Assembly: GCF_014199525.1 (NCBI RefSeq)
Contig: NZ_JACHNU010000005.1
Coordinates: 295,255 to 319,254 of the forward strand
Source of the DNA: Conexibacter arvalis
GTDB lineage: Bacteria; Actinomycetota; Thermoleophilia; Solirubrobacterales; Solirubrobacteraceae
Direction: 5' to 3'
DNA length: 24,000 bases
Shown here piece after piece: positions 1,046 to 24,000 of the stretch. A program made the position numbers and the translations under genes. Under the pieces are notes generated by a model. The model had not been told where the DNA came from, made no database searches, and saw only the letters and a list, made by a program, of their open reading frames with translations. Position 1 is the first letter of the stretch, and every line of letters starts with the position of its first letter.

Positions 1046-1101
1046 GGCCCGCTCCGACTTCTGGGGTGGAGGATGGCGCGTCAGCGCCGTATCGTGCGCG
1101 C

Positions 1102-3201: not shown

Positions 3202-3398
3202 GCGCCGGTCTTCGGAGCCGCGGGGCGGACCGGCGAAGGCGACGGGCCGCGGCGGCCGCGGTCGGAGCCCGCGCGTGCGGCGGCGAAGCGGGCGCGAGCG
3301 GCGAAGCGGGCGCGCAGGCGCTCGCCCCGGGTCGGCGGGGCGCGGTGGCGACGGGCTTCGGCGGGGTCGGGCGGGGCGGCGGGAACGAGACCGAGTTG

Positions 3399-3430
3399 GG
3401 CGATTTCTCCGCACGTTGCAGGAAATCGCC
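3399..3430. promoter_or_regulatory. 9-bp perfect inverted repeat (GGCGATTTC-N14-GAAATCGCC) upstream of the LPXTG gene; candidate operator or RNA hairpin
   Basis: Read directly: ggcgatttc at 3399..3407 and gaaatcgcc at 3422..3430. It sits in the least GC-rich patch of the 270-bp intergenic region, 42 bp upstream of the start at 3472. Function is not established. Confidence 0.25.
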
Positions 3431-3471
3431 GGCCGGTTCCGACGGCGCCGGCGTTATGGTTCCGCGCCCCG

Positions 3472-4071
3472 ATGCCTCGCACTGCTCAGTTCACCGCCGT
3501 CACGCTCGCCGCCGCGCTGGCGCTGCCCGCGCCGGCGCTCGCCGACGACGCTCCCCCGCCGCTCGCGGACACCGCTCCCGCCGAGCTGCTCGCCGACACC
3601 TCGCCCGTCGCGCTCGCCGACACCGCTTCCGCCGAGCTGCTCGCCGACACCTCGCCCGTCGCGCTGACCGACACCGCCTCCGTCGCGCTGCTCGCCGACG
3701 CCTCGCCGGTCGCGCTCGCCGACACCACGCCGGGCGCGCTCGCCGACACCACGCCGGGCGCGCTGCTCGCCGACTCCGCGCCGCTGACCGACGCGCCGGT
3801 CCCGCGCGACGCGCCGCAGGCGACCGCGACGCCGCTGGCGGCGGACGACCACGAGATCCTCGCCGACGCCGGCGACCCGGAGCGGCTGCTGGCCCAGGCG
3901 CCTCCCGCGACCGACACCCCGCCGGCCGCCAGGCTCCCGCACACCGGCACGGAGCTGCTGGTGACGCTGCTCGCCGGCGGCGGGCTGCTGCTGACCGGCG
4001 CTGGCCTGCGCATCGGGATCGGGCGGCCCGACGGGATCGCCTCGCTGCCGACGGCCGACGGGCCGCGGTGA
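3472..4071 (+). CDS. Sortase-anchored (LPXTG-type) cell-surface protein with about 10 tandem 8-9 aa LADTxPxxL repeats
   Basis: Track ORF 3472..4071. N-terminal signal peptide (FTAVTLAAALALPAPALA|DD). Repeat block LADTAPAEL/LADTSPVA/LADTASAEL... C-terminal sorting signal LPHTG, then a hydrophobic segment (TELLVTLLAGGGLLLTGAGL) and a basic tail (RIGIGR...). Confidence 0.7.
   Translation: MPRTAQFTAVTLAAALALPAPALADDAPPPLADTAPAELLADTSPVALADTASAELLADTSPVALTDTASVALLADASPVALADTTPGALADTTPGALLADSAPLTDAPVPRDAPQATATPLAADDHEILADAGDPERLLAQAPPATDTPPAARLPHTGTELLVTLLAGGGLLLTGAGLRIGIGRPDGIASLPTADGPR
3562..3798 (+). repeat. In-frame tandem DNA repeats encoding the LADTxPxxL units
   Basis: ccgccgagctgctcgccgacacctcgcccgtcgcgct occurs at about 3580 and again about 51 bp later (about 3631). 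cgccgacaccacgccgggcgcgct occurs twice in tandem (about 3718..3765, 24-bp period). Confidence 0.8.
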
Positions 4072-4523
4072 GCCCCCGGCGCCCCTCGCTGCCCGCAGGA
4101 GCGCACCGGACCGCCGGTCCGGAGGAGACGGAGGCGCTGGCGGCGCGTGTCGCCGCCGCGCTGGAGCCGGGCGACGTCGTCCTGCTCTCCGGCGACCTCG
4201 GCGCCGGCAAGACGACCTTCGTGCGCGGCGCCGCCCGCGCGCTCGGCGTCGAGGGGGCGGTCACCAGCCCGACCTTCACGATCGGCCAGCGCTATCACGG
4301 GCGCGTCGGCGTCTCGCACCTCGACCTGTACCGCCTCGGCGACCTCGCCGACGAGGACCCGGCACTGCTCGCCGACTACCTGACGCCGGAGCGGATCGCG
4401 TTCGTCGAGTGGCCGCGGGCAGCCGAGCCGGCGCTCGCCGACGCCGGCGTCACGGTCGCGGCGCGGGTGCGCCTGGAGCACGCCGGCGGCGACGCCCGCG
4501 TCATCACCGTCGAGCCCGTCTGA
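4068..4523 (+). CDS. tsaE: tRNA t6A37 biosynthesis ATPase TsaE (YjeE family)
   Basis: C-terminal part of track ORF 1887..4523. P-loop VVLLSGDLGAGKTTFVRG, then SPTFTI and HLDLYRL motifs typical of TsaE. The only plausible start is GTG 4068, overlapping the upstream stop (GTGA). Confidence 0.85.
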   Translation: MSPRRPSLPAGAHRTAGPEETEALAARVAAALEPGDVVLLSGDLGAGKTTFVRGAARALGVEGAVTSPTFTIGQRYHGRVGVSHLDLYRLGDLADEDPALLADYLTPERIAFVEWPRAAEPALADAGVTVAARVRLEHAGGDARVITVEPV

Positions 4524-8276: not shown

Positions 8277-8322
8277 CGGGCAGAGGACGGCTCCGGCGAC
8301 CGCGCCGGTACAGTGAGGTGCG

Positions 8323-8988
8323 ATGAGCTCCATGATCGAGAACGACGCCGAGACCCCGTTCGGGAAGGTCGGGGACAAGCTGACGCTCGGCGTCGCGGCT
8401 CGCCTGTCGCGCTACCTGCAGGTGCTGACGCAGGCGAAGAAGATGGGCAAGGAGACGATCTCCTCCCAGGAGCTCTCCGACTACACGCACGTCAACTCGA
8501 CGCAGATCCGGCGCGACCTCTCCGGCTTCGGCAAGTTCGGCAAGCGCGGCGTCGGCTACAACGTCGACTCGCTCGTCTCGCAGATCCGCAAGATCCTGCG
8601 CACGTCGGGCCAGCACAACATCGCGCTGTTCGGCGCCGGCCACCTCGGCCGCGCGATCGCCAGCTCCGACATCTTCGCCGACCACGGCTTCCGCGTCGTC
8701 GCGATCTTCGACAACGACCCGGGGAAGATCGGCGAGCTGGTCGGCACCCACCGCGTCCGTCCGGCCGGCGACCTGCGCGCGGTCGTCGACGAGGAGGACA
8801 TCGTCGTCGCCGTCCTCGCCGTCCCGACCGCCGCCGCGCAGATGCTCGCCGACGACCTCGTCTCCGCCGGCGTCAAGATCATCTTCAACTACTCCGAGGC
8901 GCTGCTGCAGGTCCCGCCGGAGGTGACCGTGCACACCTCGAGCCCCGCGGTCGACCTGCTCTACGCGCTCTACTTCTACCTCACCTGA
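8323..8988 (+). CDS. rex: Redox-sensing transcriptional repressor Rex (NADH/NAD+ sensor)
   Basis: Track ORF 8323..8988. RLSRYLQVL, ISSQELSDYTHVNSTQIRRDLSGFGKFGKRGVGYNV (winged helix), ALFGAGHLGRAI (Rossmann GxGxxG), KIIFNYS. It matches the Rex family end to end. Confidence 0.9.
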   Translation: MSSMIENDAETPFGKVGDKLTLGVAARLSRYLQVLTQAKKMGKETISSQELSDYTHVNSTQIRRDLSGFGKFGKRGVGYNVDSLVSQIRKILRTSGQHNIALFGAGHLGRAIASSDIFADHGFRVVAIFDNDPGKIGELVGTHRVRPAGDLRAVVDEEDIVVAVLAVPTAAAQMLADDLVSAGVKIIFNYSEALLQVPPEVTVHTSSPAVDLLYALYFYLT

Positions 8989-9025
8989 GGCCGCGCGCCG
9001 CAGGCCTCCGACGGTCCGCAGACCG

Positions 9026-10171
9026 ATGAGCATCGACTTCGCCAACGCCCGCCGCGTCTTCGAGGAATCGACCGACTTCACCGTCGGCCTCGAGGAGGAG
9101 TTCGCCGTCCTCGACGCCGGCTCGCTGGCGCTCGTCCCGCGCTTCGAGGAGCTGCGCGACGCCGCCGGCGCCGACCCGCTGATGGCCGAGTCGATAGCCG
9201 GCGAGCTGATCTCCTCCGAGATCGAGATCCGCTCCGGCCGGGGTGCCGACCTCGCCGACGCCCGCGCCCGCCAGCACGAGCGCCGGCGGCGGCTGTTCGC
9301 GCTCGCCGTCGAGCGGGGGATCGCGCTCGGCGCGACCGGCACCCACCCGTTCTCCGACTACCGCGACCAGCGGATCATCGACACGGAGCACTACCACCGC
9401 GTCGAGGAGGGGCTGAAGTACGTCGCGTGGCGCAACAACACCTTCTCGCTCCACGTCCACGTCGGGGTCCGCGGCGCCGACCGCGCGATCCAGGTCTGCG
9501 ACCGGCTCCGTCCCGTGCTGCCGCTGCTGCTGGCGATCTCGGCCAACTCGCCGTACGTCGACGGGCGCGACTCGGGCCTCCACAGCGCGCGCACGCAGAC
9601 GTTCACGAAGTCGTTCCCGCGCTGCGGCGTCCCCGACGCGTTCGGCTCGTGGAGCGCGTTCGAGCAATACCTCGACTTCCTGCTGAAGACCAACTCGATC
9701 GTCGAGTACACGCAGGTCTGGTGGTCGGTCCGGCCGCACCTCTCCTACGGCACCGTCGAGGTGCGGATCTGCGACGCCCAGTCGACCGCCGGCGAGTCCG
9801 ACGCGCTGGCGGCGCTGATCGTCGCCTGCGTCGCGCAGGCGGCACGCGACGTCGAGGAGGGCGTCCCGTTCGTCGACCCGGCGCCGCGGCTGATCGAGGA
9901 GAACATGTGGCGGGCGATCCGCCACGGCCTCGACGCCCCGCTGATCGACCTCGAGCGCGCCGTCGAGTTCCCTGGCGCGGCCGCGCTCGAGCGCCTGCTC
10001 GCGTGGACGGCGCCGCTGCGCGCCGAGCTCGGCATCGAGGTCGCGCTGCCCGAGTTGAACGGCGCCCAGCGCCAACGGCGCATGATCGACGCCGGAGCGG
10101 GCATCGAAGAGGTCTACGCGGCGACCGTCCGCGACACCCGCGAGACATACGCCCAGGAGGTGATCGTGTGA
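9026..10171 (+). CDS. ybdK: Carboxylate-amine ligase, YbdK / glutamate-cysteine ligase family 2 (GCS2)
   Basis: Track ORF 9026..10171. FTVGLEEEFAVLD, GELISSEIEIRS, GTHPF, SLHVHVGV, LLAISANSPY, GLHSARTQTF, WWSVRPH...GTVEVRICDAQ are the hallmark GCS2 motifs. Confidence 0.9.
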   Translation: MSIDFANARRVFEESTDFTVGLEEEFAVLDAGSLALVPRFEELRDAAGADPLMAESIAGELISSEIEIRSGRGADLADARARQHERRRRLFALAVERGIALGATGTHPFSDYRDQRIIDTEHYHRVEEGLKYVAWRNNTFSLHVHVGVRGADRAIQVCDRLRPVLPLLLAISANSPYVDGRDSGLHSARTQTFTKSFPRCGVPDAFGSWSAFEQYLDFLLKTNSIVEYTQVWWSVRPHLSYGTVEVRICDAQSTAGESDALAALIVACVAQAARDVEEGVPFVDPAPRLIEENMWRAIRHGLDAPLIDLERAVEFPGAAALERLLAWTAPLRAELGIEVALPELNGAQRQRRMIDAGAGIEEVYAATVRDTRETYAQEVIV

Positions 10172-10671
10172 GCGCAGAGGATCCGCAGCGTCAACCGACC
10201 GAAGAGGAGATGCGCGCCGCGCTCCAGGAGGAGCTGAAGAAGGTGCGCGTCGAGCAGGTCGTGCTGGAGGCGGCCGTCTCGATCCTCAACGTCACCGTCA
10301 TGCGCGCCGGGCTGGTGCCCGGCAGTGAGAGAGAGCGCGACCTCGACCAGGTCCGCGTCGGCATCGAGGGCGTCCGCTCGCTGCTGCCGCTCGTCGACCT
10401 GATCGCCGGCGAGCAGGCGAGACCGATCCGCGACGCGCTCTCCCAGCTGCAGCTCGCGTACGTGCAGGCGACCGAGCAGGGCGGCGCGACCGCCGGCGAG
10501 AGCCCGGCCGGCGCGCCGGGCGGCCCCGGCGGACCGGCCGCGCCGCAGCAGCCGCCGGCCGGTTCCGAGCCGGGCGCCGGCGCCGGCGCCGCGCCGCAGC
10601 CGCCGCAGCCGAGACCCGAGGGGCCGGGCCCGGCGCAGAGAAGCGGACGGCTCTGGGTTCCGGGGCAGTAG
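10168..10671 (+). CDS. Hypothetical protein: about 105-aa helical N-domain plus Gly/Pro/Ala-rich tail ending RLWVPGQ
   Basis: In frame with track ORF 9427..10671. GTG 10168 overlaps the ybdK stop (GTGTGA). No motif I can assign. The coding call rests on translational coupling, a plausible amphipathic sequence (EEMRAALQEELKKVRVEQVVLEAAVSILNV...) and the absence of a competing credible ORF. Confidence 0.5.
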   Translation: MSAEDPQRQPTEEEMRAALQEELKKVRVEQVVLEAAVSILNVTVMRAGLVPGSERERDLDQVRVGIEGVRSLLPLVDLIAGEQARPIRDALSQLQLAYVQATEQGGATAGESPAGAPGGPGGPAAPQQPPAGSEPGAGAGAAPQPPQPRPEGPGPAQRSGRLWVPGQ

Positions 10672-10740
10672 CGCTCCGAGAACCGCTGCGAGATCGCTCC
10701 AAACACGCGCCGAACGCGCGCTGACACACGCGGTTGAGAC

Positions 10741-10771
10741 TTGACCGCACGTCCATGACGTGCGGTAGGCT
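10741..10771 (+). promoter_or_regulatory. Putative hppA promoter (TTGACC-N19-TAGGCT) with an embedded perfect palindrome (candidate operator)
   Basis: ttgacc at 10741..10746 and taggct (TAnnnT) at 10766..10771. Between them, accgcacgtc-cat-gacgtgcggt (10744..10766) is a perfect 10-bp-arm inverted repeat. The 19-nt spacer is longer than optimal, so the promoter call is tentative. Confidence 0.35.
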
Positions 10772-10885
10772 CGCGCCCGCCTGATCGAGGTCGTGGAGAG
10801 CCTCGTCGCCGCGGCTTCGTCGCCTTGCCCGGCGCGCTGACCTGGCGTGCCGTCGTCGTTCAACTGAATCTGGAGGATCATCGTC

Positions 10886-12952
10886 TTGTCCAGTTTCCTG
10901 ACCGACCACGGCGTACTCGTCGCACTGGCGTGCGCAGCCTGCGCGCTGGTCTACGGCGCCGTCACCGTGCGGCAGCTGCTCGCGCTCTCGCCGGGCAACG
11001 AGCGGATGCGATCGATCTCCGGCGCGGTCCAGGAGGGCGCCTCCGCCTACCTCAACCGCCAGTACACGACGATCGGGATCGTCGGCGTCGTGCTGTTCGT
11101 CGCGCTGATCTTCATCCAGGACATCTGGGTCGCGATCGGCTTCGCGATCGGCGGGCTCTCCTCGGCGGCGGCCGGGTACATCGGCATGAACGTCTCGGTG
11201 CGCGCGAACGCGCGCGTCGCCGAGGCCGCGCGCGAGGGCGTGCCGAAGGCGCTCAGCGTCGCCTTCCGCGGCGGCGCGGTGACGGGGCTGCTCGTCGTCG
11301 GCCTGGCGCTCGTCGGCGTCGCCGCGTACTACGGGATCCTCACCGCCTGGGTCGACCAGACGCCGAAGGAGGCCGTCGACGCGCTGATCGGCCTCGGCTT
11401 CGGCGGCTCGCTGATCTCGGTCTTCGCGCGGCTCGGCGGCGGCATCTTCACGAAGGGCGCCGACGTCGGCGCCGACCTCGTCGGCAAGATCGAGGCCGGC
11501 ATCCCGGAGGACGACCCGCGCAACCCGGCGGTGATCGCCGACAACGTCGGCGACAACGTCGGCGACTGCGCCGGCATGGCCGCCGACCTGTTCGAGACCT
11601 ACGCGGTGACGGCGGTCGCGGTGATGCTGCTCGGCGTCCTCACCTTCCAGGAGGCGAGCGCGGTCGCGATCTACCCGCTCGTGATCGGCGCCGTTTCGAT
11701 CATCGCCTCGATCATCGGCACCTACTTCGTCCGCTCGGCGAGCGGCAACGTCGAGAACGCGCTCTACAAGGGGCTGATCGTCTCCGGCGTGCTGGCGGCG
11801 GCGGCCTTCTACCCGATCACGAACTGGCTGATGGACGACCTCTCGGCGATCGACGCCGGCGACATGGCGCCGTCGGTCGGCGAGCTGTACGTCTGCTCGC
11901 TGATCGGCCTCGCCGTCACCGGCCTGCTGTTCGTGATCACCGACTACTACACCTCGACGCGCTTCTCGCCGGTCAAGTCGACCGCGAGAGCGTCGGAGAC
12001 CGGCCACGCGACGAACATCATCCAGGGGCTCGCGCAGGGCTTCCAGTCGACCGCCGCGCCGGCGCTCGTGATCGCGCTCGGGATCCTGTGGGCCAACGAC
12101 CTCGCCGGCATCTACGGGATCGGCGTCGCGGTGATGGCGCAGCTGTCGCTGACCGGGCTGATCGTCGCGCTCGACGCCTTCGGGCCGATCACCGACAACG
12201 CCGGCGGGATCGCCGAGATGGCCGATCTGCCCGAGGAGGTCCGCAACGTGACCGACCCGCTCGACGCCGTCGGCAACACGACGAAGGCGGTCACGAAGGG
12301 CTACGCGATCGGCTCGGCCGCGCTCGCCGCGCTCGTCCTCTTCGCCGCCTTCGAGCACGAGCTCGACGTGGCGCTCAGCGACGCCGGCGAGGCGAGCGTC
12401 TCCTACGCGCTCGGCGACCCGGCGGTGCTGATCGGGCTGCTGATCGGCGGCATGATGGTCTACCTCTTCGCCGCCCTCTCGATGGAGGCGGTCGGCCGCG
12501 CCGGCGGCGCCGTCGTCGAGGAGGTCCGCCGCCAGTTCCGCGAGCGGCCGGGGATCATGGACGGCTCCCAGCAGCCCGAGTACGGCACCTGCGTCGACAT
12601 CGTGACGCGCTCGGCGCAGCGGGAGATGATCCTGCCGTCGCTGATCCCGATCGTGATCACCCTGGTCGTCGGCCTGCTGTCGGTCGAGGCGCTCGGCGGC
12701 CTGCTGATCGGCGTGATCGTCGTCGGCCTCTTCATGGCCGTCTCGATGACCTCCGGCGGCGGCGCGTGGGACAACGCGAAGAAGCTGATCGAGGACGGCG
12801 CCTTCGGCGGCAAGGGCTCGGAGGCCCATGCCGCGGCGGTCACCGGCGACACGGTCGGCGACCCCTACAAGGACACCGCAGGCCCGGCGATCAACCCGAT
12901 GATCAAGGTCGCCAACATCGTCGCGATCCTGATCATCCCGCTGATCGTGTGA
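10886..12952 (+). CDS. hppA: Membrane-integral H+-translocating pyrophosphatase (M-PPase), K+-independent-type signature
   Basis: Track ORF 10886..12952. TTG start preceded by GGAGGA at 10873..10878. [73 protein letters not shown] and [21 protein letters not shown] are diagnostic M-PPase motifs. GNTTKA carries Lys (codon 12284..12286) rather than Ala. Confidence 0.95.
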
Positions 12953-15871: not shown

Positions 15872-16843
15872 GTGAGCGTGTCCGTCCAACTCGGCCTGCT
15901 GCTCTCCCTCGCGACGGCGCTCGCGAGCGTCGTCGGCTTCCTCTACAAGCACCGCGGCGCCCAGCTAGCGCCGGAGGTCGACTGGAAGCGGCCGCTGCGC
16001 AGCACCTTCGTGCTGTTCCGCTCCGGCTGGTACACGCTCGGGGTCGTCGTCGCGCTCGGCGGCTGGTTCTTCCACGTCGGCGCGCTGGCGCTCGCGCCGA
16101 TCTCGCTCGTGCAGTCGGTGATCGCCGGCGGCCTCGTGCTGCTGACCGTGATCGCCGACAAGCTGTTCGGCCATCGCGTGACGCGGCGCGAGTGGATCGG
16201 CGTCGCGCTGACCGCCGCCGGCCTCGCCTTCCTCGCGGCGACGATGGAGGGCGGCGCGAAGGAGGCTCACGGCGAGTATCAGACCGGGACGCTGCTGCTC
16301 TACGTCGGCCTGCTGTCGCTCGGCGGGACCGTCGCGGCGGTCGCGGCCGGCTGGGGCGGGGAGCTGGGCGGCCGCCTGTCGGTGACGCGGCGCGCGAGCG
16401 GCTACGCGCTGTCGGCCGGCCTGCTGTGGGCGGCCTCGGACGTCTCGATCAAGGCGGTCAGCGGCCATCTGGAGGACGACGGGCTGCTGCTGACCGTCCT
16501 CAACCCGCTGTCGCTGGTGATCCTGGTCGCCTCGCTCGCCGGGCTGCTGGTCTCGGCGAAGTCGCTCCAGCTCGGCGACGCCGTCCCCGTGATCGCCGTC
16601 ACGAGTGCCGCCGCGAACCTCACGACGATCGCCTCCGGGCCGCTCGTCTTCGGCGAGCCGATGCCGTCCGACCCGTTCGCGCTCGCGCTGCGGCTGCTGG
16701 CCTTCGGGCTCGTGATCGCGGCCGCCGCGATGACGCCTCCGCCGGCGCCGGCCGACCCCGTCGCGCCGCCGCCCGAGCCCCCGGCGCCGCCGCTGGCCGG
16801 CGCCGATGCCGCAGCAGCGGCGGAGGCGCCTGCCCGGGGCTAG
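15872..16843 (+). CDS. Polytopic membrane protein, DMT-superfamily (EamA/NIPA-like) by topology, with Pro-rich C-tail
   Basis: Track ORF 15872..16843 (GTG start). About 9-10 TM segments in two similar halves and a Pro/Ala tail (PPPAPADPVAPPPEPPAPP). The family call is from topology and general resemblance only. Confidence 0.45.
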   Translation: MSVSVQLGLLLSLATALASVVGFLYKHRGAQLAPEVDWKRPLRSTFVLFRSGWYTLGVVVALGGWFFHVGALALAPISLVQSVIAGGLVLLTVIADKLFGHRVTRREWIGVALTAAGLAFLAATMEGGAKEAHGEYQTGTLLLYVGLLSLGGTVAAVAAGWGGELGGRLSVTRRASGYALSAGLLWAASDVSIKAVSGHLEDDGLLLTVLNPLSLVILVASLAGLLVSAKSLQLGDAVPVIAVTSAAANLTTIASGPLVFGEPMPSDPFALALRLLAFGLVIAAAAMTPPPAPADPVAPPPEPPAPPLAGADAAAAAEAPARG

Positions 16844-16866: not shown

Positions 16867-18780
16867 ATGGCCCGCCGCCGACTCCAAGGCCTCGAGCGCG
16901 TGCTCGGGGTGAACGCGCTCTTCTCGACCGCCTACGGCAACGTCGGCTCGTCGATCTACTACGCCCTCGGCCTCGTCGCCTCGTTCGCGCTGGGCCTGAC
17001 GCCGGTCGTCTTCGTGATCGCCGGCGTGATCTTCTTCCTGACCGCCTCGACCTACGCCGAGGCGACCGCGATGTACCCGGAGGCCGGCGGCTCCTCCAGC
17101 TTCGCCCGTCGCGCCTTCAACGAGTTCTGGTCGTTCTTCGCCGCCTGGGGCCAGATGCTCAACTACACGATCACGATCTCGATCTCGGCGTTCTTCGTGC
17201 CGCACTACATCGGGTCGCTGTTCTGGGAGCCCCTGCGCCACGCGCCCGGCGACATCATCGGCGGCATCGTCTGCGTCGCGCTGCTGGCGGCGCTGAACGT
17301 CTTCGGCGCCAAGGAGACGGCCGGCCTGAACATCACGCTCGCGGTCGTCGACTTCGCCACGCAGCTGCTGCTCGTCGGGCTCGGGCTGGTGCTGATCTTC
17401 TCGCCCGAGACGCTGATCGACAACGTGCAGTGGGGCGTCGCGCCGACGTGGTCGAACTTCATCGTCGCGATCCCGGTCGCGATGATCGCCTACACCGGCA
17501 TCGAGACGATCTCGAACATGGCCGAGGAGGCGAAGGACGAGACGAGATCGATCCCGAAGGCGATCAACCGCGTCGTGATCGCCGTCTTCGCGATCTACGC
17601 GCTGCTGCCGGCCGTCGCCCTCTCGGCGCTGCCGGTCAGCTGCGAGGGCGGCGAGTGCAAGACGCTGCTCGGCCTGCCCGAGGACCAAGGCGGCTTCGCC
17701 GGCGACCCGGTGCTCGGGATCGTCGAGCACATGGACCTCGGCCCGCTCCAGCACGCCGGCGAGGTCTACGTCGGCCTGCTGGCGGCGACGATCCTCTTCC
17801 TCGCCACCAACGCCGGCATCATCGGCGTCTCGCGCCTGACCTACTCGATGGGCATCCACCGCCAGATGCCCGACAGGCTCCGCCAGCTGCACCCGCGGTT
17901 CCGCACGCCGTGGGTCGGGATCATCGTCTTCTCGGTGCTCGCCTGCCTGGCGATGATCCCCGGGCAGGCCGCCTTCCTCGGCAACCTCTACGCCTTCGGC
18001 GCGATGCTGTCGTTCACGATCGCGCACGCGGCGGTGGTGCGCCTGCGGCTCAAGCACCCCGACGCGAGACGGCCCTACCGGGGCCCGTTCAACCTCAGAT
18101 GGCGCGGCCGCGACCTGCCGCTGTTCGCGATCGTCGGCGGGATCTGCACCGGCCTCGCGTGGGTGGTCGTGACGGTCCTCTACCTCGACGTCGCGATCAC
18201 CGGCCTGTCGTGGCTGGCGATCGGCGTCGTCGTCTTCGTCGTCTTCCGCCGCCGCCAGGGGCTCGACCTGACGACGACGACCCGCGTCGCCGTCCCCAAG
18301 CCGGTGATCGACCACGAGGCCGAGTACGAGTCGGTGCTGGTCGCCTTCGACGAGCGTGAGTACGTCTCCGACGTGCTGCGCACCGCGATCAAGCTGGCGG
18401 CCCGCAGACATCGCGGCATCCACGTGCTCGTGACGATCACCGTGCCGCCGACCAGCCCGATCAGCGCCGCGATGCCCGAGCAGGAGCTGGCGGCGCAGGC
18501 GCTGATCGAGCAGGCGAAGGTCGAGGGCGGCCGGCGCGTCACCGGGCACTGGGAGAAGGTCCGGCCGGGCCAGGCCGGCCGCCGGATCGTCGACGAGGCG
18601 AAGGAGATCCAGGCGCGCGCGATCGTGATGCCGCTCCCGGTCCGCGCCGGCGGCGGGTCGATCTTCGGCCGCACGCTGGAGACGGTCCTGGCCGAGCGGC
18701 CCTGCCGCGTCATCATCGAGTCCGGTCGCGGCAGACGCCGCGAGGCGACCCGCAGAGCCGCGACGGAGGAGGTCGTCTGA
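16867..18780 (+). CDS. APC-superfamily permease fused to a C-terminal universal-stress-protein (Usp)-like domain, paralog 1
   Basis: In frame with track ORF 16192..18780, ATG 16867. VNALFSTAYGNVGSSIYYALG, YAEATAMYPEAGGSSSFARRAFNEFWSFFAAWGQMLNY and FTGIETISNMAEEAKD are typical APC (AA_permease_2-like) TM1/TM3/TM6 signatures. The C-terminal about 150 aa (YESVLVAFDEREYV...ARAIVMPLP...RPCRVIIE) has the Usp alpha/beta pattern. Confidence 0.85.
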   Translation: MARRRLQGLERVLGVNALFSTAYGNVGSSIYYALGLVASFALGLTPVVFVIAGVIFFLTASTYAEATAMYPEAGGSSSFARRAFNEFWSFFAAWGQMLNYTITISISAFFVPHYIGSLFWEPLRHAPGDIIGGIVCVALLAALNVFGAKETAGLNITLAVVDFATQLLLVGLGLVLIFSPETLIDNVQWGVAPTWSNFIVAIPVAMIAYTGIETISNMAEEAKDETRSIPKAINRVVIAVFAIYALLPAVALSALPVSCEGGECKTLLGLPEDQGGFAGDPVLGIVEHMDLGPLQHAGEVYVGLLAATILFLATNAGIIGVSRLTYSMGIHRQMPDRLRQLHPRFRTPWVGIIVFSVLACLAMIPGQAAFLGNLYAFGAMLSFTIAHAAVVRLRLKHPDARRPYRGPFNLRWRGRDLPLFAIVGGICTGLAWVVVTVLYLDVAITGLSWLAIGVVVFVVFRRRQGLDLTTTTRVAVPKPVIDHEAEYESVLVAFDEREYVSDVLRTAIKLAARRHRGIHVLVTITVPPTSPISAAMPEQELAAQALIEQAKVEGGRRVTGHWEKVRPGQAGRRIVDEAKEIQARAIVMPLPVRAGGGSIFGRTLETVLAERPCRVIIESGRGRRREATRRAATEEVV

Positions 18781-18974
18781 TGCCAGCGCCGAGAGAGATC
18801 CACGCGACGACGACCCGCCTGATGTCGGCGATCATGGTCGTGATCGGCGTCGCGCTGCTGGTGCGGACGCTCGCCGCCGGCGGCGGCCCGCTCGCGCTCG
18901 GCGTGCTGCTGGGGATCCTGTTCGTCGCCGCCGGGACCGGGCGGATCCTGCTGCTGCGCAGGAGCGGGCGCTGA
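18780..18974 (+). CDS. 64-aa two-TM membrane peptide between the two permease genes
   Basis: Track ORF 18780..18974. ATG overlaps the upstream stop (TGATG) with GGAGGAGG 8 nt upstream, and its own stop overlaps the next ATG (TGATG). There are two hydrophobic helices (LMSAIMVVIGVALLVRTLAAG; LALGVLLGILFVAAGTGRILLL) and a basic C-terminus. Confidence 0.5.
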   Translation: MPAPREIHATTTRLMSAIMVVIGVALLVRTLAAGGGPLALGVLLGILFVAAGTGRILLLRRSGR

Positions 18975-20959
18975 TGCGCCAGCCGCCCTCGCGCACGCTG
19001 AGCGCCCGCGCGCTGTTCGCGCTCGTCTACACGACCTCGGTCAGCTCGGTCTACTTCGCGCTGGGCGTCGTCGCCCACAGAGCGCTCGGCCTGACGCCGG
19101 TCGTCTTCCTCGTCGCCGGCCTCTTCTTCGCGCTCTCGTCGATGACCTACGTCGAGGGCGCGGCGCTCCACCGCGAGCGCGGCGGCTCGTCGGTCTTCGC
19201 CCGCTACGCCTTCAACGAGCTGGTCAGCTTCGTCGCCGGCTGGGCGATCCTGCTCGACTACGCGATCCTCGTCGCGGTCACCGCCTTCACGACGACCAAC
19301 TACCTGGCGCAGTTCTGGTCGCCGCTGGGCACGGGGCTGCCGGAGGTCCTCGTCGCGATCGGCGTGATCGGCGCGGTCGCGGCCTGGAACGTGATCGGCC
19401 TGACGGTCCGCCAGCTGCAGCGCCAGATCGTGATCGCCGGCGCCGACCTCGTTGTGCAGCTGCTGGTGATCGTGCTCGGCCTGATCCTCGTCTTCGACCC
19501 GGGCGCGGCGCTCGACACGATCGAGCTCGGCTCGCAGCCGGCGTGGGACGACGTGATCTTCGCGCTGACGATCGCGACGATCGCCTTCACCGGCCTGGAG
19601 GCGGCGGCGAGCCTCGCCGGCGAGGCGACGGCGTCGCGGCGCGAGCTGAAGCGGCTGGCCGGCCCCGGCGTCGGCTCGATCGTGCTCGTCTACGTCGGGA
19701 TCGCGGTCGTCGCCGTCAGCGCGCTGCCGGTCGGCGACGGCGCCTTCAGCAGAGAGGACATCGAGGCGCCCCTGCTCGGCGTCGCGGCCGCCTTCGACCC
19801 GGCGTGGCTCGCCGACGCGCTGCGGCCGATCGTCGCGCTCGCGGCCGTCACCGCGCTGGTCGCCGCCTGCAACGGCGCGATGCTCGGCACCTCGCGGCTC
19901 TCCTACGCGCTGGCGACCAACCGCCAGATCCCGGCCGCGCTCGGGCGCCTCCACCCGAGACGCGGCACGCCGTACGTGCTGATCGCGTGCGCCGCGGTCG
20001 TCGCCTCGGCGCTCGTGATCCCGGCCGACCTCGAGTTCCTCGTCGGCATCTACGCGGTCGGCGCGCTGCTCGCCTTCACGATCGCCCACCTGGCGATCGT
20101 CGTGCTGCGCTTCAGAGAGCCCGACCGCCCGCGCGCCTATCGGGTCCCGTTCAACGTCACCGTCAAGGGCCGCCCGGTGCCGCTGCCGGCGGTCGTCGGC
20201 GCGCTGCTGTCGGCGCTCGGCTGGATCAGCGTGCTCGTGCTCCACACCGGCGCGCGCTGGGTCGGCCTCGCGTGGCTGCTCGGCGGCGTCGCGCTGTACG
20301 TCGTCTACCGCCGGATCGACGGCAACCCGCTGCTGAAGCGCGTGATGGTGCCGGAGAGCGCGCTGATGCACGAGCCCGACGACGTCGAGTTCGGCTCGAT
20401 CCTCGTGCCGGTCTTCGGCCAGCCGCTCGACGACGACATCGTCCAGACGGCCGGGCGGCTCGCCGGCACCGTGCGCGACGACCTCGACGAGGAGGGCGCG
20501 ACGATCGAGGCGATCTGGGTCTTCGAGGTGCCGATGGCGCTGCCGATCGACGCCCGCCTGCCCGAGGCCCAGGTGAGACGCGCGCAGGAGGCGCTGCGGC
20601 GCGCGAAGGCGATCGGGGAGGAGTACGAGGGGGTCCAGGTCCAGACGGCGATGATACGAGCGCGCCGCGCCGGCCACGGGATCGTCAGCGAGGCGAAGCG
20701 GCGCGGGGTGGAGGCGATCGTGCTCGCCGCCGAGGAGCCCTCGCGCGTGCGCGGCGGGGCGCTGCTGGGCGGCTCCGGCGGCCCGCTCGAGAACTACGTC
20801 GGGGAGGCGACGAAGTACGTGCTGCGCAAGGCGACCTGCCGCGTGATCCTGACCGCGCCGGCCGCCGACACGACCGACCGCTGGGCGAGAAGGGCGGCGC
20901 CCGCGGCGCCCGCCGCGGAGGGCGGTTCGGCGGATCGGCCGGAGCAGCCCTCGCGCTAA
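18974..20959 (+). CDS. APC-superfamily permease fused to a C-terminal Usp-like domain, paralog 2
   Basis: Track ORF 18974..20959. Collinear with paralog 1 (LGLTPVVF, GGSS.FAR.AFNE, FTGLEAAASLAGEA), about half the residues identical by eye. Usp-like C-terminus (FGSILVPVFGQPLDDDIV...VEAIVLAAEEPS...GGSGGPLENYVGEATKYVLRKATCRVIL). Confidence 0.85.
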   Translation: MRQPPSRTLSARALFALVYTTSVSSVYFALGVVAHRALGLTPVVFLVAGLFFALSSMTYVEGAALHRERGGSSVFARYAFNELVSFVAGWAILLDYAILVAVTAFTTTNYLAQFWSPLGTGLPEVLVAIGVIGAVAAWNVIGLTVRQLQRQIVIAGADLVVQLLVIVLGLILVFDPGAALDTIELGSQPAWDDVIFALTIATIAFTGLEAAASLAGEATASRRELKRLAGPGVGSIVLVYVGIAVVAVSALPVGDGAFSREDIEAPLLGVAAAFDPAWLADALRPIVALAAVTALVAACNGAMLGTSRLSYALATNRQIPAALGRLHPRRGTPYVLIACAAVVASALVIPADLEFLVGIYAVGALLAFTIAHLAIVVLRFREPDRPRAYRVPFNVTVKGRPVPLPAVVGALLSALGWISVLVLHTGARWVGLAWLLGGVALYVVYRRIDGNPLLKRVMVPESALMHEPDDVEFGSILVPVFGQPLDDDIVQTAGRLAGTVRDDLDEEGATIEAIWVFEVPMALPIDARLPEAQVRRAQEALRRAKAIGEEYEGVQVQTAMIRARRAGHGIVSEAKRRGVEAIVLAAEEPSRVRGGALLGGSGGPLENYVGEATKYVLRKATCRVILTAPAADTTDRWARRAAPAAPAAEGGSADRPEQPSR

Positions 20960-20969
20960 GGTTCCGGCA

Positions 20970-21398
20970 ATGCTGATCCTGATCGTCGGTGCGGGGCGCG
21001 TCGGCTCCGCCGTCGCCAAGCAGGCGCTGGAGGCCGGACACGACGTCTCGGTCCTCGACCAGGACCCGTTGTCGCACGAGCAGCTCGACAAGGACCTCGT
21101 CGACACCTGGGAGGACGCCGGCGGCCGCTTCACCGTCGGGACGGCGCTGGAGGTCGACGCGCTGGTCGAGGCCGGCATCGAGCACGCCGACGTCTTCATC
21201 GCCTCCACGCGCGGCGACAACACCAACCTTGTCGTCGCGCAGATCGCCCAGAAGCGCTTCCAGGTGCCGCGCGTCGTCGTGCGCGTCGCCGACCCGGCGC
21301 GCGCAGCCTGGTACGCCGAGCAGGGTCTGCAGACGATCTGCCCGACCCAGCACGCGATCGATCTCGTGAAGGAGGCGGCTCTTGCCCCGATGGCCTGA
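20970..21398 (+). CDS. trkA: TrkA-N (RCK N-lobe, NAD-binding) protein lacking a TrkA-C domain
   Basis: Track ORF 20970..21398. MLILIVGAGRVGSAVAKQALEAGHDVSVLDQD (GxGxxG followed by an acidic residue), DVFIASTRGDNTNLVVAQIA. At 142 aa it is too short to hold the C-lobe. Confidence 0.85.
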   Translation: MLILIVGAGRVGSAVAKQALEAGHDVSVLDQDPLSHEQLDKDLVDTWEDAGGRFTVGTALEVDALVEAGIEHADVFIASTRGDNTNLVVAQIAQKRFQVPRVVVRVADPARAAWYAEQGLQTICPTQHAIDLVKEAALAPMA

Positions 21399-21417
21399 GC
21401 ACGGACGCGACGAGCCG

Positions 21418-22089
21418 ATGTACGTGATCATCGCGGGCGCCGGCAAGGTCGGCTGGAACCTCGCGCGCGAGCTGCTCGCCAAGCAGCACGAGGTGACGCT
21501 GATCGAGGACGACCGCCGTCGCTACCTGGTCGTCGAGCAGGAGCTGGAGCACGCCGTCCAGTACGGCGACGCGACCGAGCTGTGGGTGCTCGAGCGCGCC
21601 GGCATCCAGCGCGCCGACCTCGTGATCGCCGTCACCGGCGACGACGAGGACAACATGCTGATCTGCCAGGTCGCGAAGGAGAAGTACCTGACGCAGCGGA
21701 TCGTCGCGCGCGTCAACAACCCGCGCAACCTGCAGCACTTCAGACTGCTCGGGATCCAGCCGGCCGTCTCGGCGACCGACCTGATCCTGCGCCTGATCGA
21801 GCACGAGGTGCCGCAGTACGGCCTCGTGCAGCTGCTCGCGCTCGAGGGGGAGCGGCTGGAGATCATCGAGCTCGAGGTCTCCGAGGGCGCACCGGCGGCC
21901 GGCCGCAAGGTCGGCGACGTGTCGCTGCCCGACGGAGCGCTGATCATCTCGGTGCTGCGCGACGGCGGCGGCTTCGTGCCGAAGTCCGACACCGTGATCG
22001 AGGCCGGCGATGAGGTGCTGCTGATCCTCGACCCGGGCCTCGAGTCGGCGATCACGCCCCAGTTCACGACGAGCGCGGCGGCGGCGTGA
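21418..22089 (+). CDS. trkA: TrkA/KtrA-type RCK protein (TrkA-N + TrkA-C domains)
   Basis: In frame with track ORF 21382..22089. MYVIIAGAGKVGWNLARELLAKQHEVTLIEDD, VIAVTGDDEDNMLICQVAK, and C-lobe EIIELEVSEGAPAAGRKVGDVSLPDGALIISVLRDGGGFVPKSDTVIEAGDEVLLI. ATG 21418 is preferred, but TTG 21382 has a strong SD (AAGGAGG, 21369..21375) and would overlap the upstream gene by 17 bp. Confidence 0.85.
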   Translation: MYVIIAGAGKVGWNLARELLAKQHEVTLIEDDRRRYLVVEQELEHAVQYGDATELWVLERAGIQRADLVIAVTGDDEDNMLICQVAKEKYLTQRIVARVNNPRNLQHFRLLGIQPAVSATDLILRLIEHEVPQYGLVQLLALEGERLEIIELEVSEGAPAAGRKVGDVSLPDGALIISVLRDGGGFVPKSDTVIEAGDEVLLILDPGLESAITPQFTTSAAAA

Positions 22090-23339
22090 TGGCCGACCGG
22101 CACGTCGACCACCTGCTGATCGGCGGCGGGCTCGCCTCCGCCAACTGCGCCCGCTGGCTGCGCGAGGAGGGCGCCGACGGCGAGATCCTGCTCGTCGGGC
22201 GCGAGTCCGACCCGCCGTACAACCGCCCGCCGCTGTCGAAGGGCTACATGCAGGGCAGGGAGTCGCGCGACGAGGCCTACTTCCGCCCGGACGAGTGGTG
22301 GAGGCTGCAGCGGATCGACCTGCGCACGCGCACGAGCGTGATGAAGCTCGACACGGCCGCGAAGGAGGCGACGCTGTCGACGAAGGAGGTCGTCTCCTTC
22401 GACACGGCGCTGGTCGCGACCGGCGCGATGGTCAGACGGATCCCGGCCGACGGCAGCGAGCTCGACGGGATCCACTACCTGCGCGCCTTCGGCAACTCCG
22501 ACGCGATCAGAGCCGACGCGGCCGGCAGACGGGTCGTCCTGATCGGCGGCTCCTACATTGGCTGCGAGGTCGCCGCGTCGCTGACGGCGATCGGCGCCCA
22601 GGCGACGATCGTGATGCTGGAGGAGTTCACGCTCGAGCGCGGCTTCGGCAAGCAGGCCGGCCGCTGGCTCCAGCAGCGGCTGGAGGAGCACGGCGTGCGC
22701 GTGATCGCCCAGGACAGGCTGGCCCGCTTCGAGGGCTCCGGCGGGCGCGTCACCGCGGTCGTGACCGAGGGCGGCGAGTCGATCCCCGCCGACGCGGTCG
22801 TGATCGGCGCCGGCGTGATGCCCGACGTGATGCTCGCCCGCGCGGCGAGACTGGAGCTCGACGACGAGCGCGGCGGGATCCTCTGCGACAGCCGCCTGAG
22901 AACCTCGGCCGACGGGATCTACGCCGCCGGCGACGTCGCCTCCTACGACAGCGTCGTCCACGGCCGGCGGATCCGCGTCGAGCACTGGGACGTCGCCTTC
23001 AACCAGGGCCGGACGGCCGCGCTGAACATGCTCGGCCGCGACGTGCCGCACGACGTCGTCCCGTACTTCTTCTCCGATCTCGCCGACTGGGCGTCGCTGG
23101 AGTACGTCGGCCCGGCGGCGTCGTGGGATCGCGAGATCGTGCGCGGCTCCTTCGACGAGGGAGCCTTCAGCGTCTGGTACCTCGACGGCGCCCGCGTCGC
23201 CGGCGCGCTGTCGATCGGCCGCTCCGACGACCTCGAGGAGGCGCGTCGGCTGATCGCAGCGCGGGTCGAGCTGGACGACGGGGAGCAGGCGAGGCTCGGC
23301 GATGCGGCGACGGAGCTCGCCGCGATCGGCGCGCGGTAG
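22089..23339 (+). CDS. FAD-dependent NAD(P)H pyridine-nucleotide-disulfide-family oxidoreductase (ferredoxin-reductase/AIF-like)
   Basis: Track ORF 22086..23339 (GTG 22086 or ATG 22089, both overlapping the trkA stop TGA 22087..22089). HLLIGGGLASANCARWLRE (FAD GxGxxA), DPPYNRPPLSK, LVATGA, VVLIGGSYIGCEVAASL (NAD(P) site), IYAAGDVA, HWDVA, plus the reductase C-terminal dimerisation region. Confidence 0.85.
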   Translation: MADRHVDHLLIGGGLASANCARWLREEGADGEILLVGRESDPPYNRPPLSKGYMQGRESRDEAYFRPDEWWRLQRIDLRTRTSVMKLDTAAKEATLSTKEVVSFDTALVATGAMVRRIPADGSELDGIHYLRAFGNSDAIRADAAGRRVVLIGGSYIGCEVAASLTAIGAQATIVMLEEFTLERGFGKQAGRWLQQRLEEHGVRVIAQDRLARFEGSGGRVTAVVTEGGESIPADAVVIGAGVMPDVMLARAARLELDDERGGILCDSRLRTSADGIYAAGDVASYDSVVHGRRIRVEHWDVAFNQGRTAALNMLGRDVPHDVVPYFFSDLADWASLEYVGPAASWDREIVRGSFDEGAFSVWYLDGARVAGALSIGRSDDLEEARRLIAARVELDDGEQARLGDAATELAAIGAR

Positions 23340-23412
23340 CGCGAGCCGCCGGGGCTGGGAGGTCGGAGATCGCCTTCGCCGCAGCCACCGGAGCGCCGCC
23401 CACCGCCCGCCG

Positions 23413-24000
23413 ATGACGCCCGCCGAGGAGACGCGCGAGCGGATCGCGACCCTGGCGGTGACGCTGCGCGCCTTCACGCACGCGGCCGGCGCCGAGGCGG
23501 CGATCCTCCTGCTCGACCGCGGCGACGGCGGCCAGCCGTTCGTCGTCGACTGTCCGCAGGAGGGGTTCGTGACGCTGGCCGAGGGCGAGCAGCTGGTCGA
23601 GCTCGACCCCGCGCGCCTGGCGGCCGAACCGCTGCCGGTCCCGTCCGTTCGCCCGCTCGGCCCGTTCGCCATCGCCGCCCTGCGCGCCGAGCTGACCGCG
23701 ATCGCCGACGACGGACGGAGCGACCCCGACCTCCCGGCGGTCGCCGCAGACCCGGTCGTCGTGCCGGGCGCGGCCGCAGGCACAGGGGTCGGGGGCGGGG
23801 CGGGCGAGGCGCGGATCGCGCCGCTCGCACGGGCGCTGCGCGAGCTGACGGCCGGCTTCCCGGGGCGCAGCGTCCTCAGCGCGATCTTCGTCACGAACGA
23901 CCCCGAACGGCCGCTCCAGCTGACCGCCCGCGCCGGCGACGCGATGATCGCCTCGCTCGGCGAAGAGCAGTTCGAGCTCCCCGCTCGCTGGCCGCGCTGA
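23413..24000 (+). CDS. Hypothetical protein (195 aa), no recognisable motif
   Basis: In frame with track ORF 23302..24000, ATG 23413, and the stop TGA is the last 3 nt of the window. The sequence is plausibly globular, with an Ala/Gly/Pro loop in the middle. The coding call is based on length and the lack of alternatives. Confidence 0.4.
   Translation: MTPAEETRERIATLAVTLRAFTHAAGAEAAILLLDRGDGGQPFVVDCPQEGFVTLAEGEQLVELDPARLAAEPLPVPSVRPLGPFAIAALRAELTAIADDGRSDPDLPAVAADPVVVPGAAAGTGVGGGAGEARIAPLARALRELTAGFPGRSVLSAIFVTNDPERPLQLTARAGDAMIASLGEEQFELPARWPR

Follow-up and report, generated by a model that had tools for sequence, protein, structure and literature searches.

We wondered which membrane protein is served by a pair of TrkA-type (RCK) proteins when no TrkH or KtrB pore is encoded beside them. 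The known targets of RCK/KTN domains are SKT pores, K+ channels and CPA2 antiporters. The question is raised by a six-gene operon of Conexibacter arvalis (GCF_014199525.1), which lies in a stretch of 24,000 nt from contig NZ_JACHNU010000005.1 (positions 295,255-319,254), referred to here as the window. In this operon two APC-fold permeases that each end in a Usp-like domain (the APC::Usp proteins A1 and A2) and a small membrane protein (S) are followed by two RCK proteins (T1 and T2) and a flavoprotein (FR). We propose, with about even confidence, that the operon is a K+/cation-homeostasis module in which an APC-fold heteromer of A1, A2 and S is the membrane partner of the RCK pair. The proposal builds on the genes and their domains, on a linkage found from the permease side as well as from the RCK side, on K+ genes in related loci and on a residue pattern that A1 has in common with the K+ transporter KimA. 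The features are as follows.

A1: 16867-18780, plus strand; 637 aa, APC-fold carrier with 12 transmembrane helices (TM) and a C-terminal Usp-like domain
S: 18780-18974, plus strand; 64 aa, small membrane hairpin of two helices joined by a central GGG turn
A2: 18974-20959, plus strand; 661 aa, APC::Usp paralogue with a degenerate substrate site
T1: 20970-21398, plus strand; 142 aa, RCK N-lobe only (TrkA_N)
T2: 21418-22089, plus strand; 223 aa, KtrA-like, TrkA_N and TrkA_C
FR: 22086 or 22089 to 23339, plus strand; 417 aa, FAD/NAD(P)H oxidoreductase of the ferredoxin-reductase/AIF type
DMT-like protein: 15872-16843, plus strand; 10 TM, ends 23 bp before A1

An earlier reading made from the sequence only had described six co-directional genes at 16867-23339, and both the open reading frames (ORFs) and their junctions can be read directly from the DNA as described. 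A1 and S as well as S and A2 overlap by 1 bp in a TGATG, A2 and T1 are separated by 10 bp, and T2 and FR overlap by 4 bp or 1 bp in a GTGATG. For the T1/T2 junction two versions had been offered, a 19-bp gap to the ATG at 21418 or a 17-bp overlap created by a TTG at 21382. Because homologues begin with MY..IAG we place the start of T2 at ATG 21418, so the gap stands and the overlap is dropped. The content of guanine and cytosine (GC) at third codon positions is 0.90-0.99 in the called frames of the six genes, which shows that all of them are real coding sequences. The A1 start agrees with the orthologue consensus MAERRLQGLERVLG, and ATG 18974 is the sole possible start of A2. The A2 frame is open for a further 115 codons upstream of this ATG (window 18629-18973) without any ATG, GTG or TTG, and S is read there in another frame.

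The domains assigned by eye in the sequence-only reading were recovered by a Pfam hidden Markov model search. A1 matched AA_permease_2 (1e-40) and Usp (4.6e-12, residues 487-617), A2 matched the same two families (5e-38 and 5e-6), T1 matched TrkA_N (3e-21) without TrkA_C, T2 matched TrkA_N (3e-29) and TrkA_C (3e-13), and FR matched Pyr_redox_2 (2e-61) and Reductase_C (6e-13). S belongs to no Pfam family. NCBIfam agreed with Pfam for the operon proteins, with no equivalog cut-off reached. Full-length identity between A1 and A2 is 37%, and identity between T1 and T2 is 32%; both RCK proteins carry a GxGxxG followed by an acidic residue, as read from their sequences. By eye, the Usp motif G-2x-G-9x-G-[ST] is incomplete in A1 (RAGGGSIFGRT) and in A2 (GGPLENYVGEA), and the c-di-AMP motif of the S. 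aureus KdpD Usp domain, SxS-X20-FTAxY, was not seen in either protein. No TrkH, KtrB, Kup or Kdp was found in the window when all large ORFs were searched with Pfam.

Linkage of the permease genes and the TrkA pair

We analyzed the conservation of the operon from two sides. On the permease side, a scan at one genome per species yielded 80 loci, all from Thermoleophilia, which were sorted by tblastn with the window proteins. The order A1-S-A2-T1-T2, here called type I, was present in 46 of them in addition to the window. In 24 loci we found a second layout, type II, in which genes for a histidine kinase and a response regulator come after S-A2-A1. The two layouts were mutually exclusive among the 80 loci, and the remaining 10 were mostly short contigs. 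As type I recurs in dozens of independent genomes, the arrangement is far beyond chance. S was found in 57 of the 80 loci and in both layouts. S-like small ORFs also stand directly before APC::Usp genes in distant loci (L083, L084 and the P0193 contig), even in an archaeal one (Hydrothermarchaeota, L090), which marks S and APC::Usp as an old two-gene unit. S is a conserved third, small membrane subunit. The sequence-only reading had named the two APC paralogues as the only membrane partners of the RCK proteins, and in doing so it overlooked both S and the degenerate state of A2 described below.

On the RCK side, a metagenome scan with an alignment of T2-like proteins gave 80 loci with 53-92% identity to T2, of which 50 were informative in that each had at least 1.3 kb of upstream sequence. 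An APC::Usp gene lay directly upstream of T1-T2 in 39 of the 50. Two further loci also hold one; in the first it had been missed through overlapping hits and in the second it lies 1.4 kb away. T1 was directly upstream of T2 in essentially all loci with upstream sequence, and its match spanned about 130-140 residues. In one locus (L161) A1, an A3-like gene, T1 and T2 come directly after a KimA-like gene. The sequence-only reading had made its case depend on synteny beyond this genome, and the linkage of the APC::Usp genes to the RCK genes proved conserved from whichever side it was searched.

The absence of a TrkH/KtrB-type pore, noted for the window alone in the sequence-only reading, held in a wider sample as well. 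Using tblastn with a single haloarchaeal TrkH as query, we detected no TrkH/KtrB-like gene in 93 fetched loci or in the 80 T2-centred loci, and no TrkH or Kup hit adjoined T1-T2 in any of the latter. The operon resembles Trk and Ktr systems in that T2 is KtrA-like, with TrkA_N and TrkA_C, and shares an operon with membrane proteins. It differs from them in that T1 has no C-lobe, that the membrane partners are APC-fold carriers and that an SKT-family pore is missing from the window and the related loci examined.

APC::Usp proteins form a large family, with at least 853 representative clusters at E<=1e-30 in a full HMMER search. We therefore looked at the neighbourhoods of nine full-length distant members with 33-39% identity to A1. 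In two of them (L086 and the P0193 contig) a TrkA_N gene and a TrkA_N+C gene directly follow the permease genes, with overlapping permease/TrkA junctions in L086. In two others (L083, L084) the TrkA pair lies about 2.5 kb from the permeases, with two genes inserted between. The TrkA_N-only products of these four loci have 139-151 aa. A fifth locus (L087:7158-12369) holds a T2-like gene divergent from APC::Usp, then a 150-aa Usp-like ORF and Kup (K_trans). Three of the nine had no K+ genes in their neighbourhood. Altogether, T2 identity can fall to 53% and A1 identity to 34%, and the flanks can change, without loss of the linkage.

The genes at either end of the operon behaved differently from this core. 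FR adjoins T2 in 19 of 41 type I loci with enough flank and in many T2-centred metagenome loci, and it is absent from L083, L084, L086 and the P0193 contig. We therefore rejected FR as a core redox sensor; it is an optional, lineage-restricted accessory gene. The earlier suggestion that a coupled FAD reductase makes the system redox- or NADH-responsive accordingly does not hold as a general feature and is speculative. The pairing of an RCK/KTN domain with an NAD(P)H-dependent flavoprotein has a precedent in KefC/KefF, and FR, which is translationally coupled to T2, could by analogy play a KefF-like role at the RCK domain. KefF has a flavodoxin fold, whereas FR is of the ferredoxin-reductase type with two dinucleotide domains and occurs in about half of the loci; moreover, the membrane partner here is not CPA2, and the window holds no CPA2 gene. 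The DMT-like gene does lie only 23 bp upstream of A1, as had been stated, and ends at 16843. Of 45 type I genome loci, 3 have it upstream, and in one clade it precedes T1-T2; we rejected it as a part of the module in general, and it is a clade-specific neighbour and not core. Its protein gave weak matches only (NCBIfam DMT_1 at 29 bits, NIPA and TMEM234 under their cut-offs). One metagenome locus (L113:1959-7456) reads DMT-S-A2-T1-T2-FR.

Potassium genes and the substrate site of A1 and A2

The type II loci place the same permeases beside a different set of regulators. Their kinases have the architecture DUF4118-HisKA-HATPase_c in Pfam and represent the C-terminal half of a KdpD that lacks KdpD-N and Usp; their response regulators are of the OmpR type and KdpE-like. 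The opposite side is occupied in 10 loci by kdpA and kdpB in divergent orientation (KdpA 1e-216 and P-type ATPase in Pfam). Many type II loci have a third APC::Usp paralogue, A3, and some have a second kinase-regulator pair; in L027 the triad is co-directional with the kinase downstream, after a gap of 17 nt. Examples of this layout are L021 (2036-18178), L027, L035, L036, L040-L042, L045, L063 and L073. The composition of these loci suggests that the sensory half which KdpD lacks here is provided by the carrier. A related arrangement was found in another of the nine distant members, L091 (1-8950), which reads kdpA-kdpB, kinase, regulator, KdpD-N+Usp and APC::Usp. KdpD is split there into a DUF4118-GAF-HisKA-HATPase gene and a separate KdpD-N+Usp gene, with the response regulator between the two. 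Kup was present in the L087, L015 and L038 loci. A K+ or osmolyte uptake system had been suggested in the sequence-only reading, and a link to K+ homeostasis gained independent support from these Kdp/KdpDE-like, Kup and split-KdpD neighbours. A1 also has a KimA-like site.

Sources name the APC::Usp family "basic amino acid/polyamine antiporters". In a PDB sequence search the closest solved relatives of A1 were xCT, BasC, GkApcT, CAT and ApcT, and in its AlphaFold2 model (mean predicted local distance difference test score 81.6) the membrane domain matched BasC and GkApcT with target-normalised TM-scores of 0.81-0.88 in Foldseek, the highest being that to BasC. ApcT, BasC and GkApcT are thus the best overall match in sequence and fold for the membrane domain, an AA_permease_2 domain; A1 and A2 differ from them by a TM5 Asp in place of Lys, by KimA-type residues in TM3, TM6 and TM10 and by the fused Usp domain. 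The longest Foldseek alignments of the model were to other proteins, KimA and the SLC12 transporters, which covered about 630-750 columns compared to about 450-500 for most amino-acid carriers, a length consistent with coverage of both the membrane and the C-terminal domain.

KimA (YdaO) is a KUP-related K+/H+ symporter of B. subtilis (PDB 6S3K, 8B70) that, like A1, combines an APC/LeuT fold with a cytoplasmic alpha/beta domain. Its alignment to the A1 model is among the longest (about 630-640 columns) and covers more than the membrane domain alone. The two proteins are about 24% identical; HHalign aligned A1 to KimA-like proteins with a probability of 98.6%, A1 had no Pfam K_trans match, and KimA was absent from the PDB hits of A1 at E<=1e-3. 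Judged by sequence, the relation is one of homology at the superfamily level only. The functional residues of KimA are D36, Y43, D117, T121, S125, T230, E233 and Y377, and the fold of its cytoplasmic domain is common to a prokaryotic CCC domain and the nucleotide-binding PPAT (PMC6994465). We mapped these residues by pairwise BLAST, MAFFT and HHalign, and the three approaches agreed. A1 keeps six of the eight: Y23, T103, S107, T210, E213 and Y375 correspond to Y43, T121, S125, T230, E233 and Y377. The equivalent of D117 is N99 in A1 and an Asp in A2, in A3 and in distant members. The motifs common to both proteins are xALxSxAYG in TM1, [DN]YxxTxxxS in TM3, TG[VI]E[AT]ISN in TM6 and LY in TM10, and neither BasC nor ApcT has this KimA-type pattern.

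KimA differs in other respects. KimA-like proteins have a Phe in TM5 where A1 has an Asp, KimA is a homodimer whereas two diverged paralogues and a small subunit are found here, the C-terminal domains of A1 and A2 score as Usp, and KimA is directly regulated by c-di-AMP and has no known RCK partner. The SLC12 transporters (NKCC1, NCC, KCC) resemble A1 in joining an APC fold to a cytoplasmic alpha/beta domain of the nucleotide-binding type, and they gave the longest alignments of all (about 650-750 columns). They are set apart by the lack of sequence-level membership, by a target-normalised TM-score of about 0.4 and by being homodimers without an RCK partner.

Among 81 A1 orthologues the TM1 segment AYGNVGSSIYY, D162, Q166 and the TM6 segment AYTGIETISN are invariant or nearly so. 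D162 lies in TM5, with Q166 one turn later, and this position is an Asp in 79 of 81 A1 and 62 of 67 A2 sequences; ApcT has its proton-site Lys at the same position (K158), and an aligned Lys is found in BasC and LysP. A free carboxylate in TM5, at the site equivalent to Na2, points to binding of a free cation, and D162 may replace the Asp that is missing from TM1. The GxG of amino-acid carriers in TM1 reads G-S-S in A1 and V/A-S-S in A2. A2 has lost the TM1 glycines (T, A or V instead), has a Leu at the position of T103 and is variable at that of S107; it keeps D99, D162, Q166 and E213. The full residue set is present in 14 of 18 copies of the unpaired A3 and is largely kept by most distant members. 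Decay of this complementary kind, with N99 in A1 and the loss of the TM1 glycines and of the T121 equivalent in A2, fits an obligate A1/A2 heteromer. A1 is probably the transport-competent subunit and A2 probably its regulatory or structural partner.

TrkA neighbours in other lineages and competing readings

TrkA genes adjoin other APC-fold permeases outside Thermoleophilia. In haloarchaea an APC permease gene is followed by a TrkA gene, with a 10-bp overlap on Halobacterium pNRC200 (L081:8923-11029), and the same pair occurs with different flanks on Natrinema pNATPE02 (L093:4920-7055). This haloarchaeal permease has the canonical amino-acid signature, namely GxG and the TM5 lysine, and no Usp domain. 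Nonomuraea gerenzanensis (L096:4176-7660) encodes a 691-aa AA_permease_2 protein divergent from two overlapping TrkA_N+C genes. The permease is a full-length KimA orthologue (3e-120 to PDB 6S3K) without a Usp hit. A second KimA orthologue (4e-114 to 6S3K) is followed in Streptomyces sp. BHT-5-2 (L098:3703-9672) by a TrkA_N-bearing protein, a TrkA pair and then kdpED/kdpB. These actinomycete loci differ from the operon studied here in that both TrkA proteins have N- and C-lobes, unlike T1, and in that the neighbour is a KimA orthologue without a Usp hit instead of an APC::Usp pair. On plasmid p1 of Streptomyces fungicidicus (L095:3529-7657) two TrkA family genes are translationally coupled, through overlapping stops and starts, to the gene of a cation-transporting P-type ATPase. 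The flanks of that locus contain several Usp genes, a nitroreductase and Hsp20, and with the ATPase a further membrane protein outside the SKT family is found next to a TrkA pair.

The sequence-only reading had suggested that the mycobacterial TrkA homologues ceoB and ceoC also sit beside a large APC-like membrane protein. In substance this held up. The Trk system of M. tuberculosis, which affects virulence and drug tolerance, is described as two TrkA proteins only, with no TrkH-type subunit named. Rv2690c, described in the literature only as an integral membrane protein, adjoins ceoB and shares a rifampicin-survival phenotype with it in transposon sequencing. The likeness to our operon is that a large integral membrane protein has two small TrkA-type genes in tandem next to it, and the divergent layout of the Nonomuraea locus is the one that the literature gives for Rv2690c-ceoB-ceoC. 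In Nonomuraea and Streptomyces a KimA orthologue takes the corresponding place, and Rv2690c is presumably KimA-like too, which we assume by analogy. We found no literature linking KimA with CeoB/CeoC, and control of an APC-fold carrier by RCK proteins was not found in the open literature searched. A Streptomyces review lists two KimA-like proteins for S. venezuelae and no TrkH, KtrB or KtrD, with TrkA unmentioned there (PMC10117811).

How might the module of C. arvalis work if A1, A2 and S are indeed the membrane partner of the RCK pair? A1 would serve as the transport-competent subunit, A2 as its degenerate partner and S as a small two-helix subunit, and each large subunit would expose a Usp-like cytoplasmic domain of the same alpha/beta kind as in KimA and SLC12. 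T1 with its N-lobe only and T2 with both lobes would form a KtrA-like RCK assembly that docks on the cytoplasmic face and tunes transport according to a nucleotide ligand, which could be NAD(H), ATP/ADP or c-di-AMP, and FR would be an optional accessory. In this scheme we infer that the heteromer forms and that the RCK proteins dock, as well as which ion is moved and in which direction.

Several observations weigh against this proposal. The coupling of the RCK pair to the APC proteins is guilt by association. No TrkA gene lies within 10 kb in the 24 type II loci, and none of four plasmid-borne KimA-like genes has a TrkA neighbour, so adjacency of KimA and TrkA is not universal. In overall sequence and fold A1 is nearer to amino-acid carriers than to KimA. 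The equivalent of KimA D36 in A1 is Asn, Pro, Arg or Gly and not Asp, and a D36N exchange abolishes K+ uptake by KimA (PMC6994465). Kup and Kdp in the same loci could mean that APC::Usp senses or regulates K+ and does not carry it. A larger block, Rex-GCS2-H+-PPase-A1-S-A2-T1-T2, is conserved within Thermoleophilia and relatives; much of the synteny comes from this one class, so that part of the linkage may go back to common descent of the gene order. Finally, seven T2-centred loci, all from one clade with T2 proteins 81-84% identical to ours, have no A1-S-A2 (L108, L109, L112, L116, L118, L119 and L132; for example L108:6604-9915). There T1 comes directly after the DMT gene in L108, L118 and L132, and six of the seven have FR after T2, as if the permease genes had been cut cleanly out of the operon. 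The T2 identity levels of the clade match those of type II loci, and we infer that the APC triad of this lineage may have been transferred to the kdp locus without the RCK pair.

Some of these observations would be expected if A1, A2 and S were mainly a sensor or 'trigger transporter' for K+ or osmotic status, with Usp domains that would signal to the RCK pair or to the truncated KdpD-like kinase, which in type II would in turn control kdpFABC. The triad stands directly upstream of a kinase without the KdpD N-terminal and Usp domains in the 24 type II loci, APC::Usp follows a split KdpD in L091, and Kup or KimA-like genes co-occur in some loci. The degenerate site of A2 and the missing D36 equivalent of A1 also suit a sensor, and a co-sensing APC permease is known in LysP, which acts with CadC. 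The Usp domain of KdpD is an input site for c-di-AMP and UspC according to work cited in PMC12699388. We nevertheless consider a mainly sensory role rather unlikely, as the transporter-like residues of TM1, TM3, TM5, TM6 and TM10 are fully conserved in the 81 A1 orthologues, which is unexpected for a pure sensor; sensing and transport are, however, not mutually exclusive. The resemblance to amino-acid carriers raises the further idea that the substrate of A1/A2 is an organic solute involved in osmotic or K+ balance, be it glutamate, another amino acid, a polyamine or a compatible solute, and that the RCK proteins couple this transport to K+ or nucleotide status. The best matches of the membrane domain are xCT, BasC, GkApcT, CAT and LAT, the best NCBIfam match is an amino-acid transporter subfamily (TIGR00909, far below its cut-off), A1 retains a partial G-S-S motif in TM1, and the haloarchaeal permease indicates that RCK proteins can pair with ordinary APC carriers of the amino-acid type. 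The exchange of the TM5 Lys for Asp and the KimA-type residues in TM1, TM3, TM6 and TM10, absent from BasC and ApcT, speak against this idea, and the gene neighbours are K+ systems and not amino-acid metabolism; hence we hold an organic substrate to be improbable.

An equally different view is that there is no direct partnership at all, that T1 and T2 serve a TrkH/KtrB, a channel or another transporter elsewhere, or the DMT-like protein, and that adjacency is inherited order. The conserved GCS2-H+-PPase-A1-S-A2-T1-T2 block would be explained in this way, as would the two genes between A2 and T1 in L083 and L084, the seven loci without A1-S-A2 and the type II loci without TrkA, and the P-type ATPase coupled to the TrkA pair of S. 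fungicidicus implies that partners vary. Such a view has to contend with the tight junction of 10 bp in our operon and the overlapping one in L086, with a linkage that persists among differing flanks to the identity levels given above, with three APC subfamilies that independently adjoin TrkA genes and with T1-T2 pairs that have no TrkH or Kup hit beside them in 80 loci; in addition, the published survey found no TrkH/KtrB in Streptomyces venezuelae (PMC10117811). We judge the lack of any partnership to have a small probability.

The proposal of an APC-fold membrane partner can also be widened, although we regard the wider form as doubtful. RCK proteins might regulate APC-fold cation carriers as a general class of K+ uptake systems in which the carrier varies by lineage. 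Thermoleophilia would use a new family of K+ transporters, the APC::Usp heterodimer with its small subunit, and in its KimA-like site the essential carboxylate would have shifted from TM1 to TM5; actinomycetes including M. tuberculosis (CeoB/CeoC with Rv2690c) would use a KimA-like carrier, and haloarchaea another APC permease. In kdp-linked lineages the carrier would have a second task as K+ input of a truncated KdpD kinase.

If the partnership is real, APC-fold carriers are a new class of membrane partner for RCK proteins, and a family of at least 853 clusters consists of cation/K+-homeostasis proteins instead of "basic amino acid/polyamine antiporters". The actinobacterial "Trk" lacks a translocating subunit, and a concrete candidate for it would then be at hand, which is relevant to the mycobacterial CeoBC "Trk" with no membrane subunit named.

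The remainder of the window

The window has a GC content of 70-80%, at which promoter and terminator scans were uninformative, and its proteins match Conexibacter and Solirubrobacterales (Thermoleophilia). Riboswitch control was considered and rejected, as no Rfam family, that of the c-di-AMP riboswitch included, was matched in the window or in seven related loci. Besides the genes discussed above, the window encodes UDG, TsaE, a CAP-domain protein, GNAT, TsaD, Rex, GCS2, H+-PPase, MFS and Ig-like proteins. GCS2 and the membrane H+-PPase (window 8317-12952) are also found upstream of APC::Usp in L083, L084, L086 and the P0193 contig, and Rex in L083; in the window, the MFS, Ig-like and DMT genes are inserted between the Rex/GCS2/H+-PPase block and A1. 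A K+ link via the upstream H+-PPase was considered and rejected, as its motif is the one that we take to be that of the K+-independent type. A stretch of 80% GC at about 1100-4100 (1081-4100) contains long ORFs on both strands without a Pfam match, except for TsaE at the end of the plus-strand ORF. Downstream of FR, an ORF at 23302-24000 has no family match and is weakly conserved, with 35-51% identity in L002, L004 and L005.

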